Of a DNA stretch of 64,000 nucleotides, positions 2,209-35,867 are shown in pieces. A program made the translations under genes and the position numbers. The stretch comes from Patescibacteria group bacterium (lineage in GTDB: Bacteria; Patescibacteriota; Minisyncoccia; Minisyncoccales; RBG-13-36-15), in assembly GCA_018609195.1 (NCBI GenBank), contig JAHCSE010000001.1, positions 9,559 through 73,558 on the forward strand, in the 5' to 3' direction. Below the pieces are notes generated by a model that worked only from the letters and a program-made list of their open reading frames with translations, did no database searches and had not been told where the DNA came from. The stretch's first letter is position 1, and every line of letters begins with the position of its first letter.

Positions 2209-2932
2209 ATTTTTTCGTGATCACATTCCATCTTATTTGGAAAACCTCAAAAAGCATCTTTATCATTCCTTTCAGTTTTACCTTGCTTTCAGGATCATTA
2301 ATCCACTTTACCGGGATCTCTTTTACTTTATAACCTAATGTCTTAGCTATTACTAAAATTTCAACATCAAAAGCCCAGCGATTAATTTTACATTTTGGTA
2401 AAATATCATCTACCGCCTTTTGTGTAAATCCTTTAAAACCACATTGAGTATCCCAAATCCCCCACAAGCCAGAAACTACCTGAACAATTAAATTAAAAAT
2501 ATCCCCCAATCTCCTTCTTATGAAAGATTGAGGAACAGCAATGACAGCTCCCTTGATATCTCTCGACCCAATAACAACTTCAAAACCCTTTTCAAGCTCT
2601 GGCCACATTTTCTCAACTTGATCAATAGAAGTAGCATTATCAGCATCAGTAAACAATCTGTACTCCCCTTTTGCCTCTAACATTCCTTGCCTTACCACAA
2701 AACCTTTCCCATTATTTTCTTTATTATCAATCAATCTCAGATTTTTTATTCGACTTTGTAAATTTTTTACAACTTCGGCAGTCTTATCTTTTGAGCCATC
2801 ATTAACCACAACTATCTCAGAATCATAATTTTGCTTTCTTAAATACTTATCAATCTCAGTCAAAGTTTTTGGCAAACGCCTTTCTTCATTATAAACAGGA
2901 ATGATAACGGATAAATAAGTTCTATTTGGCAT
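2201..2932 (-). CDS. family 2 glycosyltransferase (polyprenyl-phosphate hexosyltransferase-like)
   Basis: 243 aa with SVIIPVYNEE, VVNDGSKD and TDADN (DxD), indicating a GT-A fold. Confidence 0.8.
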   Translation of the reverse strand: MPNRTYLSVIIPVYNEERRLPKTLTEIDKYLRKQNYDSEIVVVNDGSKDKTAEVVKNLQSRIKNLRLIDNKENNGKGFVVRQGMLEAKGEYRLFTDADNATSIDQVEKMWPELEKGFEVVIGSRDIKGAVIAVPQSFIRRRLGDIFNLIVQVVSGLWGIWDTQCGFKGFTQKAVDDILPKCKINRWAFDVEILVIAKTLGYKVKEIPVKWINDPESKVKLKGMIKMLFEVFQIRWNVITKKYG

Positions 2933-2970
2933 TAGATTATTTTAGCACAAAAATTTTTAGAAACAAAAAC

Positions 2971-2995
2971 GGGGCGTTCAGCTAGCTGACACCCC
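2971..2995 (-). terminator. intrinsic terminator of small gene 3019..3246
   Basis: GGGGCGTTCAGC/GCTGACACCCC hairpin followed on the minus strand by GTTTTTGTTT. Confidence 0.6.
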
Positions 2996-3018
2996 TTTTA
3001 AGATAGGTATTTTGTGAA

Positions 3019-3246
3019 TTAGAAGGTGATGAGATAGATCTGATCCCCTCTCGGTGTTTTACAGGATTTCACTTCACGGTACTTATCGGCGAAGAATACT
3101 CGAATCCACTTTATTGCTTGGAGTGCATCATCATCAGGATTGCCTTTATTTGGCTCAGCGCTCATTGAAAGCGTTACATTGCCAGGTCTATCATGCTGGA
3201 CTACTTGAACTCGGAGCTGAACTGTCTTGTCGAACAAAACTGTCAT
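3019..3246 (-). CDS. hypothetical small protein (75 aa), cassette 1
   Basis: ORF with strong SD (AAGGAGGT 8 nt before ATG), its own TTGACA-N17-TATATT promoter and its own terminator. Locally GC-richer than the flanks. No family recognised. Confidence 0.55.
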   Translation of the reverse strand: MTVLFDKTVQLRVQVVQHDRPGNVTLSMSAEPNKGNPDDDALQAIKWIRVFFADKYREVKSCKTPRGDQIYLITF

Positions 3247-3309
3247 TCCCAGAACCTCCTTTTCTCCTCTGCCAAATGATCAGGACTTATGGAATTTTGT
3301 GCTGATTGT

Positions 3310-3338
3310 AATATAATCTATTGTTATAATTCTGTCAA
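3310..3338 (-). promoter_or_regulatory. sigma70-like promoter of cassette 1
   Basis: Minus strand TTGACA-gaattataacaatagat-TATATT. Shares AATAGATTATA and the leader AGCACAAAWTTCCA with the promoter at 3710..3738. Confidence 0.6.
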
Positions 3339-3347
3339 TAAAAAAAT

Positions 3348-3373
3348 GGGGCGCTCAGCCACTCGAGCGCCCC
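3348..3373 (-). terminator. intrinsic terminator of small gene 3422..3655
   Basis: Perfect 9-bp stem GGGGCGCTC/GAGCGCCCC followed by a T-run on the minus strand. Confidence 0.7.
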
Positions 3374-3421
3374 TTTCGGATGTGAACCCATTTTAGGCCT
3401 GGGTGAAGGATGAGAGATTTC

Positions 3422-3655
3422 TTATCTTCTTTTCCCGAACTCTAACTCTTTTGTTATAACAGCTATCGCTTCCTCCCTGTTTTTAGCAAATCTTATCGTC
3501 TGACCGGAGACCCAGGCAGTCCATGGGCGCTGGCGCCAAGAGTAATGCGTTATACCAGTAAAAAATTCCCTCGGGAAGTTTTGCATTTGTTCCTTAGTAG
3601 GGTCTTCAATGATTTTTATCGTCCTCCCAGCCACTATTATCTCTCCTGGCTGCAT
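3422..3655 (-). CDS. hypothetical small protein (77 aa), cassette 2
   Basis: ORF with purine-rich SD (GGAAAGGGAGAG), its own promoter and terminator. GC-richer than the flanks. No family recognised. Confidence 0.55.
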   Translation of the reverse strand: MQPGEIIVAGRTIKIIEDPTKEQMQNFPREFFTGITHYSWRQRPWTAWVSGQTIRFAKNREEAIAVITKELEFGKRR

Positions 3656-3709
3656 TTCTCTCCCTTTCCTATCTATAAAATGCAGGGCGTGGAAATTTGT
3701 GCTAACTTC

Positions 3710-3738
3710 CCTATAATCTATTATTCCAAATTTGTCAA
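3710..3738 (-). promoter_or_regulatory. sigma70-like promoter of cassette 2 (inside the 3' end of map)
   Basis: Minus strand TTGACA-aatttggaataatagat-TATAGG, homologous to the promoter at 3310..3338. Confidence 0.5.
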
Positions 3739-4470
3739 TACTCGGCTGCCATTTTTTGTTACCGCAATTGTTTGTTCAAAATGGGCTGAAAGAGAACCAT
3801 CTTGAGTTTCATAGCCAAACCCATCTTTTGTTTTTTTAAGTTTCCAATCCCCTATTGTTACCATAGGTTCAATGCAAATTACCATACCTTCTTTTAGCTC
3901 AATTCCTTTATGTCTTTTCCCATAGTTTAAAATTTTTGGGTCCTCATGTAATTCTTTGCCAATTCCGTGGCCACAGAGTTCTCTTACTACATTGTATCCT
4001 TGAGATTCCACATATCTTTGAATGGTATTTGAGATATCCCCTATGGTATTTCCTGGCCTTACTTTTTTAATTCCTCTTTTTAAAGCCTTTTTTGTTACTC
4101 TTATTAATCGTAATGTTTCCGGATTAACTTTTCCTACTGGTAAGGTCACCGCCATATCATTGTGAAAACCCTTATATAAAATCCCCAAATCCAAAGTTAA
4201 AACATCTCCTTCTTTCAAAACTCGATTAGAAGGAACAGAATGGACAATCTCTTCGTTGATTGAACTACAGAGACAGGTTGGAAAACCTTCATATCCTTTG
4301 AAAGAACATTTCCCCCCATATTTTAAAATCAGGCTCTCTGCGAGCCTGTTCAGTTCTTTAGTCGTTATTCCCGGTCTTACTTTCCCTATCAATTCTTTCA
4401 TTATCTTGCCAAGAATTTTTCCACCTTCTGTCATGATTTGAATTTCTTCTGAGGATTTAATCGTTATCAT
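3721..4470 (-). CDS. map: methionine aminopeptidase type I
   Basis: 249 aa with pita-bread motifs DLGILYKGFHNDMA, CGHGIG and ICIEPM. Canonical position after adk. Confidence 0.92.
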   Translation of the reverse strand: MITIKSSEEIQIMTEGGKILGKIMKELIGKVRPGITTKELNRLAESLILKYGGKCSFKGYEGFPTCLCSSINEEIVHSVPSNRVLKEGDVLTLDLGILYKGFHNDMAVTLPVGKVNPETLRLIRVTKKALKRGIKKVRPGNTIGDISNTIQRYVESQGYNVVRELCGHGIGKELHEDPKILNYGKRHKGIELKEGMVICIEPMVTIGDWKLKKTKDGFGYETQDGSLSAHFEQTIAVTKNGSRVLTNLE

Positions 4471-6468: not shown

Positions 6469-6900
6469 TTATTTTATTACGCCTCCTGCTTTCTCAATTT
6501 TCTCTTGAGCTTGCTTTGAAACCTGACATTCTTCAATTGATAACTTTTTTGTCAGTTTCCCTTTTCCTAGAATTTTAACCTGGGGCAATCTTCCTTTTAT
6601 TTTACGAAATATTCTTTTCTCATGCAAGACTTTAGGAGTAATTGTATCTCCCTCTTTAAATTTTTTTTCTAAAATTTCAACATTAATTACAGTTGGTTTT
6701 AATTGAAAACTCTTAAATCTATATCCTCTCAATTTTGGATACCTTTTTATCAATTCTCGAATAATGGGCTTTAATCTTCTGCCTGCTCTCGATTTTTGAC
6801 CTTTCATTCCCTTACCAGAATAAGTTCCGCGTTTACCCCCTCGGCCAACGCGCTTTTTTCTCTTTCTTTTATAATTTGGTTTTAGCTGATGAAGTTGCAT
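6469..6900 (-). CDS. rplO: 50S ribosomal protein L15
   Basis: KRVGRGGKRGTYSGKGMKGQKSR motif; position in the spc operon. Confidence 0.93.
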   Translation of the reverse strand: MQLHQLKPNYKRKRKKRVGRGGKRGTYSGKGMKGQKSRAGRRLKPIIRELIKRYPKLRGYRFKSFQLKPTVINVEILEKKFKEGDTITPKVLHEKRIFRKIKGRLPQVKILGKGKLTKKLSIEECQVSKQAQEKIEKAGGVIK

Positions 6901-6975
6901 AAATAATGGCTAAATGGCTCAATGGTTAAATGGTTATTTTTAACATAGCCATGTAGCCATTTAACCATGTAACCA
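6901..6975. repeat. degenerate short tandem/inverted repeat spacer (AATGGYTAAATGG units)
   Basis: aatggctaaatggctcaatggttaaatggtta ... tagccatgtagccatttaaccatgtaaccatt. Occupies the slot where rpmD (L30) normally lies. Confidence 0.7.
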
Positions 6976-7449
6976 TTATCTCGGTGCTTTTAACTGTTTT
7001 AACGCCTCGATGGTCGCTCTCGCATTATTCAACTTATTGCTTGTCCTTCCCAGAATCTTTGATGAAACATTTTTTATTCCAGCTAAAGTACAAATCACTC
7101 TTACTGTTCCTCCTGCTACCAGTCCCCTTCCTCTTCTTTGAGGTTTCAATAAAACTTTAGCTGGCCCAAATTTAGCATAAACTTCATGGGGAATAGTATC
7201 TTCAACAATGGGAATGGTAATTAAATTTTTCTTAGCTAATCTGGTAGCTTTTTCAATGGCTTGAGCAACATTAAGGCCTTTCGCCACTGCCACCCCAATT
7301 TTCCCTTCTTTATTACCAGTCACCACCACTGCCCGAAAGCTAAAACGCCGACCACCGGCTGTCACCCGAGTCACTCGAGCCAAATCTAAAAGCTTTGATT
7401 CAAATTCTTCCTTTTTTTCTTCTGCAATTATTTCTACCATATAGAACAA
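6976..7449 (-). CDS. rpsE: 30S ribosomal protein S5
   Basis: RVTRVTAGGRRFSFRAVVVTGN and GIKNVSSKILG motifs. Confidence 0.93.
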   Translation of the reverse strand: MFYMVEIIAEEKKEEFESKLLDLARVTRVTAGGRRFSFRAVVVTGNKEGKIGVAVAKGLNVAQAIEKATRLAKKNLITIPIVEDTIPHEVYAKFGPAKVLLKPQRRGRGLVAGGTVRVICTLAGIKNVSSKILGRTSNKLNNARATIEALKQLKAPR

Positions 7450-26822: not shown

Positions 26823-27479
26823 TTATTCAAGCCTATAATCCATAATATCCAAGAACCAATAACCTTCCATTTTAACTGGCCTGCTTTTCAGTATCCTTAT
26901 TTTCTTCTTAAATAGCGGGCCATCTACTACAAGGGTATGGTATTCGCCGTTCTCACCGCAAGGGTCAATATGTTTATATGCTCTCAAGTCTTTAAGAAAT
27001 TCCATATCCAGTCTTCTTCCAATCCACTCTTCACCAAGAAGACTTGCTTGGGTGCTTACTATTATTGCCTCAAATCCCGAATCTATGAATTCTAAAAGAA
27101 TTTCTTCTGGATTGCGACCCCAGAGAGGTTCAACCAACCGAAGACCGAGTTCTCCGCAAATCTTCTCTGCCCACTCTAAACAGTGCTGGAGGTGAATATC
27201 ACCAAAGACCATTCCCGATACTCCTCCTGGAAGCAATCTCCGCACGGCTTCCTTAAATTCTTGTTCGTATCCATCGGGCGTAGTCTCTACTTGCAAAATG
27301 GGAATACCCATTACTTGGGCTTGTGTTTGGATAAGCCCGGCTTCTATGCCGTGGAATCGGACACGCTTGAATTCTCTGGAAATAGTGTTGAAGAGATACG
27401 AAATATCATATCCTTCACGCTTTGCCTTATAGACGGCAAGGCAACTATCTTTGCCGCCGCTCCAAGAGGAAATATACAT
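26823..27479 (-). CDS. Dph6/MJ0570-type PP-loop ATP pyrophosphatase
   Basis: 218 aa with SWSGGKDS PP-loop. Paralog of 34119..34805. Confidence 0.7.
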   Translation of the reverse strand: MYISSWSGGKDSCLAVYKAKREGYDISYLFNTISREFKRVRFHGIEAGLIQTQAQVMGIPILQVETTPDGYEQEFKEAVRRLLPGGVSGMVFGDIHLQHCLEWAEKICGELGLRLVEPLWGRNPEEILLEFIDSGFEAIIVSTQASLLGEEWIGRRLDMEFLKDLRAYKHIDPCGENGEYHTLVVDGPLFKKKIRILKSRPVKMEGYWFLDIMDYRLE

Positions 27480-35308: not shown

Positions 35309-35605
35309 TTAAAATCGAGGAATTAAACTCATAATTCCTTTCGAACCAACTAAAACGGCAGCAATCAGGAAAAGGAAGTTAGGAAGAACTACCCAAAAAC
35401 TTAAGAGAAGCAATCCTCCTCCCGTAATATCCATCAGGCCTCCGATATCTAAGGGAAAAAGAAAACCTTTTATCAATAAATAGCCCCCGAAAATAATTAA
35501 AATGAGTAGAGAAACATCCACTTGAAAGGCTCTTGATAATAATAAGCCTGCACTCGCGATGTCCATTAATCCCAAGGAGAACATAAAAGAAATTAAAAAT
35601 CCCAC
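35309..35605 (-). CDS. small polytopic membrane protein (98 aa)
   Basis: First ORF after the cobalamin riboswitch. GTG start (an alternative ATG lies 7 codons in). About 3 TM helices. Confidence 0.5.
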   Translation of the reverse strand: MGFLISFMFSLGLMDIASAGLLLSRAFQVDVSLLILIIFGGYLLIKGFLFPLDIGGLMDITGGGLLLLSFWVVLPNFLFLIAAVLVGSKGIMSLIPRF

Positions 35606-35679: not shown

Positions 35680-35826
35680 AAAAATGTGTCCTCCTCCGTT
35701 AAAACTTTGGAGGACATGGATGGCATTCTGACTTTCACAGTTACGGCATAGTCCCGGATTTCCTGCCCGCATCGCTATACGAAGTATTGCAGGCGGGTCA
35801 CCGGAGTTCCCCATCCGTTTTCAAAG
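35680..35826 (-). promoter_or_regulatory. cobalamin riboswitch with terminator expression platform
   Basis: Sense strand: GGATGGGGAACTCCGGTGA...GGAAATCCGGGACTATGCCGTAACTGTGAAAGTCAGAATGCCATCC (B12-box-like AGTCAGAATGCC; P1 stem GGATGG/CCATCC). This is followed by the hairpin TGTCCTCC...GGAGGACA and T7. Confidence 0.78.
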
Positions 35827-35837
35827 TCCGTTAATAA

Positions 35838-35867
35838 ATAATATCAGCTTGCACGAAGTAGTGTCAA
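35838..35867 (-). promoter_or_regulatory. sigma70-like promoter of the riboswitch operon
   Basis: Minus strand TTGACA-N18-TATTAT just upstream of the aptamer. Confidence 0.6.

Follow-up and report, generated by a model that had tools for sequence, protein, structure and literature searches.

Two short genes found side by side in the genome of a Patescibacteria group bacterium (GTDB lineage Patescibacteriota; Minisyncoccia; Minisyncoccales; RBG-13-36-15) were analyzed with regard to their expression signals, their relatives and their origin. They lie in a stretch of 64,000 nucleotides of contig JAHCSE010000001.1 (assembly GCA_018609195.1, positions 9,559 to 73,558), which is referred to as the window and whose positions are used unless another record is named. 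Nearly all genes of the window are encoded on the minus strand, where the order rplF, rplR, rpsE, rplO, secY, adk and map (3721-4470) is followed by the two small genes and, on their 3' side, by a family-2 glycosyltransferase gene (GT2, 2201-2932), a GalT/HIT-like gene and tpiA. Each small gene forms a monocistronic unit on the minus strand, composed of promoter, leader, Shine-Dalgarno (SD) sequence, open reading frame (ORF) and terminator: unit 2, nearest map, contains ORF77 (3422-3655) for a basic soluble protein of 77 aa (isoelectric point 10.0) from a rare, unannotated small-protein family, and unit 1, nearest GT2, contains ORF75 (3019-3246), which probably codes for a basic soluble orphan protein of 75 aa (isoelectric point 8.9). 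In a first-pass annotation, made from the letters alone, both had been described as autonomous cassettes with homologous signals and unrelated coding sequences, and as possible mobile cargo.

Structure and composition of the two units

The promoter and leader of unit 2 (3690-3740, minus strand, as all features of both units) comprise a -35 box TTGACA at 3738-3733, a 17-nt spacer and a -10 box TATAGG at 3715-3710. Transcription is predicted to start near A3703 of AGCACAAATTTCCA, and the 5' untranslated region (UTR, 3656-3703) carries the purine-rich SD GGAAAGGGAGAG, which is still purine-rich in the related lineage L001 (GGAGGAGGAGG). The promoter lies inside the end of map, as had been proposed, since its -35 box forms Leu-Thr codons of that gene and the map stop codon (3723-3721) falls into its spacer. 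The putative intrinsic terminator of unit 2 (3340-3373), a 10-bp GC stem (3373-3348, -21.6 kcal/mol) with U7, abuts the next promoter and is retained as a hairpin with altered stem sequence in a second related lineage, L005. The other copy of promoter and leader (3290-3340) holds TTGACA at 3338-3333, again a 17-nt spacer, TATATT at 3315-3310 and AGCACAAAATTCCA; the 5' UTR of unit 1 (3247-3303) has the SD AAGGAGG and, in addition, TCCTGATCATTTGGCAG, the counterpart of a block that L005 has in common with the distant contig L040. Unit 1 would be closed by an intrinsic terminator (2961-2995) consisting of a bulged stem (2995-2971, -15.7 kcal/mol), then GUUUUUGUUU, with a U-run after the stem. Promoters, hairpin terminators and both reading frames were thus found where the first-pass annotation had placed them.

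The likeness of the two units extends far beyond the promoter hexamers. Both carry AATAGATTATA and the leader AGCACAAAWTTCCA, their -35 boxes (3333 and 3733) are exactly 400 nt apart, and the segments 3290-3340 and 3690-3740 represent one 51-nt direct repeat at this spacing with 39 of 51 positions identical (76%; P ~1e-7 by chance, corrected for all pairs within 1 kb). When the 12 hexamer positions were left out, 31 of 39 positions still matched (P ~5e-6). The terminators of the two units resemble each other as well. The composite pattern TTGACA-N11-ATAGATTATA-N8-AGCACAAA has only two sites in 64 kb, both of them here, where none was expected. In the first 12 kb no promoter match exceeds that of unit 1 (11/12) and no terminator match that of unit 2; the more general pattern TTGAC[AT]-N16-18-TAnnnT has only nine sites in the 64 kb. 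One of these (TTGACA-18-TATTAT at 35867) precedes an adenosylcobalamin (AdoCbl-II) riboswitch at 35713-35827 (minus strand; 39.1 bits, above the gathering score), which suggests that the organism makes use of promoters of this type. A small hydrophobic ORF (35309-35434) is located 3' of this riboswitch.

The motif recurs a third time, inverted and shortened (TAGATTAT..AGCACAAA), on the plus strand at 2933-2951, where it overlaps the start codon of GT2 (start at 2932). In 128 kb, counting both strands, the motif occurs three times, always within 800 nt at this locus. Read on the minus strand, the inverted copy is TGCTAAAAT, which resembles an extended -10 element 8 nt before the ATG of GT2 and is kept in L005; this hints that the GT2 mRNA is leaderless or that an operator is shared. 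Folding of the leaders, with regard to sequestering of the SD, gave a significant SD-occluding hairpin only for the unit-2 leader of L001 (z -4.1); the remaining five leaders fold like shuffled sequences, and the consensus leader structure reaches just -3.3 kcal/mol.

In composition the region stands out as the first-pass annotation had noted, with a GC content of 43.0% compared to 37.7% for the window (top 6.7% of equal-sized windows), and the cassette ORFs are GC-richer than their flanks in the relatives too. GC at third codon positions (GC3) is a stronger compositional signal than overall GC, amounting to 0.46 and 0.43 for the two ORFs against a gene mean of 0.31 +/- 0.046. A codon bias of highly expressed genes was considered as the cause of the high GC3 and rejected, because the ribosomal-protein genes, together with neighbouring genes, show values of only 0.22-0.35.

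The strong SD sequences are equally exceptional, and here again the early impression held, for 65 of 73 long ORFs in the window are without even a 4-nt SD core. According to gene calls for the same genome (L002), most starts have no SD, among them those of adk, map, alaS, infA and almost every ribosomal-protein gene, and apart from some incidental matches only ORF77 and ORF75 show a purine-rich SD core. Besides them, the one full-length gene of the window found with a strong SD (AGGAGG) is a diphthamide-synthase-like gene at 26823-27479 (minus strand; PF01902, E 1e-56), which has a raised GC3 of 0.40 and is possibly another acquired gene. A similar division was seen on three contigs with distant relatives of ORF77 (L037, L038 and L040), where small orphan genes have an SD and housekeeping genes have none. 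In the SD-poor Flavobacteriia, a strong SD of rpsU allows translation by a subpopulation of ribosomes. Likewise, few genes with a strong SD stand here among others, ribosomal-protein genes included, that have none. In some Parcubacteria the anti-SD has been reported to be wholly absent (10.1101/2022.01.07.475337).

It had further been claimed that the cassettes are inserted where the alpha operon should continue and that infA and rpmJ are absent after map. A break is present at this site, the extent ascribed to the cassettes was overstated, and the two genes are not missing: in the same genome infA and rpmJ follow map on its downstream side at a distance of about 10 kb, outside the window past its left end (L002:19815-20234), with infA carrying its own TTGACT-17-TATCCT promoter. 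The block between map and infA, in which the cassettes, GT2, the GalT-like gene, tpiA, an RNase H-like gene, mnmA, an 85-aa gene, alaS, an ftsA-like gene and a 421-aa gene are located, amounts to twelve genes, and the two cassettes take up its first 0.8 kb only. Parts of the spc and alpha operons are separated by a large block, not lost. Farther upstream, no L30 gene was found between rpsE and rplO (6900-6976); L30 has been reported missing in all bacteria of the candidate phyla radiation (CPR), with S5 and L15 adjacent (10.1101/2022.01.07.475337).

The two proteins and their relatives

At the same position ORF77 has a counterpart in L001 (P0002, 79% identical) and a 75-aa version in L005. Indels among these sequences measure 3 and 9 nt, both multiples of three, and dN/dS amounts to 0.39-0.44; dS against L005 is 0.57, and the adjacent GT2 gene has the same dS, with a dN/dS of 0.31. 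Judged by this substitution pattern, ORF77 is a protein-coding gene under moderate constraint. The AlphaFold2 (AF2) model has a pLDDT of 70 and a pTM of 0.61.

Profile searches retrieved a family of small proteins of 67-86 aa (E-values of the small homologues 9e-11 to 8e-4) and, in addition, the N-terminus of one 452-aa protein. Its members align over ~65 residues with the motif G..I.II.NP...I..L.R..FTG(L/I)T...(Q)PW.VW..G..I.F..TKEEA, in which A5, I13, I16, P19, T33, G34, W48 and G51 of the alignment are invariant. Large proteins with TPR and HYR repeats, which also surfaced as candidates, were rejected as repeat artefacts. The family has ~10 members among roughly 15 billion proteins, counted in 1.8 billion representatives and 5.8 billion clusters.

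These members are found on short contigs in mutually different contexts: 3' of HicAB and an MBL-fold gene in L037, before an engB-like gene in L038, after a deacetylase-like gene in L040, convergent with a tRNA-synthetase-like gene in L042, and between GT2-like and GT4 glycosyltransferase genes in L041 (201-413) and L045 (407-643). The latter two genes have TTGAC promoters, almost no leader and no SD. A glycosyltransferase gene near the ORF77 family thus occurs in the window (one gene away), in L041 and in L045, a weak hint of a recurrent association. No relative of ORF75 was found near the ORF77-family genes of L037, L038, L039 and L040 by BLASTP and tblastn, and with L041, L042 and L045, where the neighbours are glycosyltransferase or tRNA-synthetase genes, seven family loci are without an ORF75 relative nearby.

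For ORF75 a single relative is known, P0003 in L005, which is 84% identical. Gene callers passed over the ORF in three assemblies of the same genome, and the protein collection does not contain its exact sequence. Its SD and ATG are conserved in L005 and the frame is open there; the antisense ORF is truncated in that lineage. A core of 141 nt differs from L005 by one synonymous change, while the neighbours show a dS of 0.57. AF2 gave a pLDDT of 61, and the predicted secondary structure is a regular beta-beta-alpha-beta-beta. Taken together, ORF75 is probably coding. It resembles lineage-restricted orphan or de novo small genes in that its one homologue belongs to a close relative and the evidence that purifying selection acts on it is weak; it differs from them in having a complete, borrowed expression module in place of an origin inside existing transcription.

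The two proteins are mutually dissimilar, as had been stated: BLASTP, hhalign, DNA alignment and a six-frame hidden Markov model (HMM) search found no similarity between ORF77 and ORF75, and the possibility that ORF75 derives from a copy of ORF77 by divergence or frameshift was discarded with them. The homology and structure searches that the first-pass annotation had recommended for both proteins did not give an identity. Neither has a match in Pfam, NCBIfam or PADLOC at E<=1 or in PHROG below E=0.04, PDB sequence searches with single proteins and profiles returned nothing below E=0.77, and Rfam gave no match at E<=1. There was no significant fold match either; matches to dsRBD- and HPF-like folds stayed below threshold. 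Both proteins are hydrophilic and basic, and on the strength of the basic isoelectric points, the compact alpha/beta predictions and the sub-threshold folds a role as small nucleic-acid- or ribosome-binding regulators might be suggested, a proposal that we consider quite doubtful.

Conservation, exchange and reuse of the module

Both cassettes occupy the same site in L001 and L005, as conserved core genes would. They are not core genes, because the family of ORF77 has so few members among all proteins searched, and their GC lies above that of the flanks. Within this shared position the divergence is strikingly uneven. Compared to L001, the window has 48 mismatches in the 282 nt of 3790-3509 (17%), a patch comprising the end of map, the unit-2 promoter and leader and the first two thirds of ORF77, in a pair that is otherwise roughly 99% identical (7 mismatches in ~720 nt elsewhere, 2 of them in ~450 nt of map and 5 in 274 nt downstream). 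Compared to L005, the window is 94% identical from ORF75 through the GT2 start (2862-3229), without any mismatch in 3229-3143, in a pair otherwise roughly 78% identical and ~20-25% diverged in ORF77 and the distal part of GT2. From such sharp mosaic tracts it follows that alleles of this region were evidently exchanged between lineages.

Among the distant family members, L038 and L040 carry a promoter and leader of the window type (TATTGACTAATTTTGAATAATAGAYTATATA...CTGACTATTTAGCAGGC...AAGGAGGG). Homology between these two contigs sets in sharply with the -35 box, the DNA upstream of it being unrelated, and is lost gradually past the terminator; identity decreases from 95% in the promoter and 90% in the leader to 69% in the coding sequence (nucleotides) and 51% in the protein. 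In a similar manner, unit 2 of the window and L040 are 84% identical in the promoter and 36% in the protein. As far as sequence comparison reaches, the expression module is more conserved than the protein driven by it, and genes of the ORF77 family are placed in unrelated surroundings as blocks that extend from the -35 box to the terminator. The exact 17-mer CTGACTATTTAGCAGGC is common to the ORF75 leader of L005 and the ORF77-family leader of L040 (chance ~5e-7), and ORF75 therefore appears to be driven by a module of the ORF77 type.

A comparable arrangement with a promoter of different sequence was met in L037, where a tandem array of short promoter-to-terminator units (L037:1493-2963) surrounds the ORF77-family gene. 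One promoter is present there in three copies, two of which, those of the ORF77-family gene and of an unrelated 77-aa gene, have the exact ATTGACAAAAGCGAAATCATGTAATAG in common; the third drives a structured unit without an ORF, and terminators lie between the units. The ORF77-family gene is flanked by two units devoid of a long ORF (~1555-1806 and ~2198-2403) that fold strongly (z -3.5 and -4.3), the second into an extended hairpin of roughly 140 nt, and these are candidate structured RNAs without a match in Rfam or by ARAGORN.

Origin of the cassettes

With moderate confidence we favour the reading that the units are accessory, co-expressed small-protein cassettes which move and are rebuilt as promoter-to-terminator modules. 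They would be accessory cargo relocated as whole modules, and a local duplication of promoter and leader (and terminator), which then came to flank a different ORF, would have given rise to a new unit; the orphan ORF75 may have obtained its ORF77-type leader by this route. The common promoter would cause the two genes to be co-expressed independently of the ribosomal-protein operon, the SD would make their translation SD-dependent, unlike that of the other genes of the genome, which start without one, and homologous recombination would exchange the region from strain to strain.

In known systems the closest parallel is the phage moron, defined as an independent transcription unit in a prophage with its own promoter and terminator and a GC content unlike that of its flanks (PMC3594210). 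Alike are the presence of one small gene with its own predicted promoter and terminator between unrelated genes and the deviating GC, implying a horizontal origin. Unlike morons, the cassettes are located outside any phage or prophage, between map/adk/secY and GT2/galT-like/tpiA, two of them use one promoter module, and this promoter travels with the gene family across genomes. The assumption of moron-type or mobile cargo is consequently upheld as to autonomous units, odd composition and a block in unrelated contexts, and not as to phage origin; the locus may be understood as a moron-like theme of autonomous small genes in a non-phage, CPR context, for which the comparative evidence is thin. 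Integron cassettes share with the units a tandem order of short elements with unrelated ORFs and conserved boundary sequences. They are, however, promoterless and end in an attC used by the integrase, whereas the units here have their own promoter and a plain intrinsic terminator; neither an attC nor an integrase was seen, although no search aimed at them was made.

Several points weigh against the favoured reading. An empty site between map and GT2 was not found, as the cassettes are present in all three related lineages available, so that insertion is deduced and not seen. All promoters, starts of transcription and terminators are predicted from consensus sequences only, and the -10 box of unit 2, TATAGG, is weak (4/6 of the consensus). 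With dN/dS at 0.76 on just 17 substitutions, selection on the ORF75 protein is not demonstrated. The unit-2 leader is 57-63% identical to those of the distant members, barely over the aligner background of ~55%. Finally, the search for more cassettes with the same promoter and leader, which had been advised, disclosed no further cargo in genome, metagenome and viral scans: an 18-base promoter pattern had 28 single matches in genome contigs, none with a -35 box or TTCCA tail, a 24-base pattern had none in metagenome contigs, and a looser pattern gave 14 matches, all of them generic consensus promoters except for the known P0011 locus. The viral collection (IMG/VR) contained no real match to the promoter module and no relative of ORF75, and an nhmmer profile over the DNA searched returned no further full-length copy of the module. 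All these scans are weak negatives, as the source contig and genome were themselves not recovered by them.

Since no empty site was found, both genes might also be ordinary, vertically inherited, lineage-specific small genes, nothing about them being mobile, whose promoters are alike merely as near-consensus sigma-70 promoters with AT-rich spacers or by virtue of a common operator. This would agree with their conserved position in L001 and L005, with the equal dS of ORF77 and GT2 between window and L005 and with the many unrelated consensus promoters in metagenomes that are matched by looser patterns, and the inverted TAGATTAT..AGCACAAA copy at the GT2 start could be such an operator. It is difficult to reconcile with a likeness that persists at 31 of 39 non-hexamer positions, with homology between L038 and L040 that begins at the -35 box behind unrelated upstream genes, with GC3 and SD usage far from the host norm, ribosomal-protein genes included, and with the extreme sparsity of the ORF77 family; all in all we regard vertical descent as rather unlikely.

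A phage source, as morons or anti-defence genes left in the chromosome, had been suspected at first and appears improbable now. Autonomous promoters and terminators together with a GC unlike the flanks do fit the moron definition (PMC3594210), the proteins are small orphans, and ORF77 shows fast mosaic evolution between near-identical strains. The flanking genes, map and GT2, are housekeeping genes and not prophage, a dN/dS of ~0.4 is not diversifying selection, and PHROG yielded no protein at the above threshold and the IMG/VR collection no ORF75 relative and no promoter module, although such an absence is weak evidence because CPR phages are poorly sampled.

Equally improbable, in our estimate, is that unit 1, possibly both units, represents a non-coding or dual-function RNA gene in which ORF75 is incidental. 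The missing gene calls, the high dN/dS of ORF75, the conservation of its 141-nt core at the nucleotide level and the two strongly folding ORF-less units around the L037 gene would be in line with it. Folding of the whole transcripts was unremarkable, however (z +1.0 for unit 1, -0.8 for unit 2), Rfam gave no match, a strong SD stands at the right distance from a conserved ATG and is kept in L005, and ORF75 predicts a regular secondary structure; the low divergence fits equally well a recent recombination tract that spans the terminator and the GT2 start too. A further proposal of the first-pass annotation, a toxin-antitoxin pair, to which two adjacent genes of ~75 aa and the HicAB pair near the L037 homologue may seem to point, is effectively refuted, as unlike type II modules the genes have a strong terminator and a second promoter between them and are predicted to be transcribed separately, ORF77 homologues occur at seven loci without an ORF75 relative, and no Pfam or PADLOC match was obtained.

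Genomes of CPR bacteria, or Patescibacteria, are rich in small hypothetical genes of obscure origin and regulation, and this locus offers a checkable pattern for them: a module that is better conserved than its protein, is reused for unrelated cargo and marks the few genes bearing an SD. As a tentative generalisation, which at present we hold to be possible and no more, SD-poor Patescibacteria may possess a separate kind of accessory small gene, organised as a portable promoter-SD-ORF-terminator module, the promoter and leader of which are copied locally onto unrelated ORFs or RNAs. Local copying, as proposed for the lineage of the window and, independently and with a different promoter, for L037, would lead to tandem, co-regulated arrays, and the cassettes, which are almost alone in their genomes in bearing an SD, could make up a regulon that is translated separately. 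Should the pattern not be general, the locus would be merely two orphan small genes beside a ribosomal operon. If it is general, it would help to locate small genes that are accessory or recently born in CPR genomes and would let one ask whether CPR ribosomes keep the anti-SD for a special set of genes; and module copying, if true, might be one way in which new small genes, ORF75 for example, arise already equipped with expression signals.

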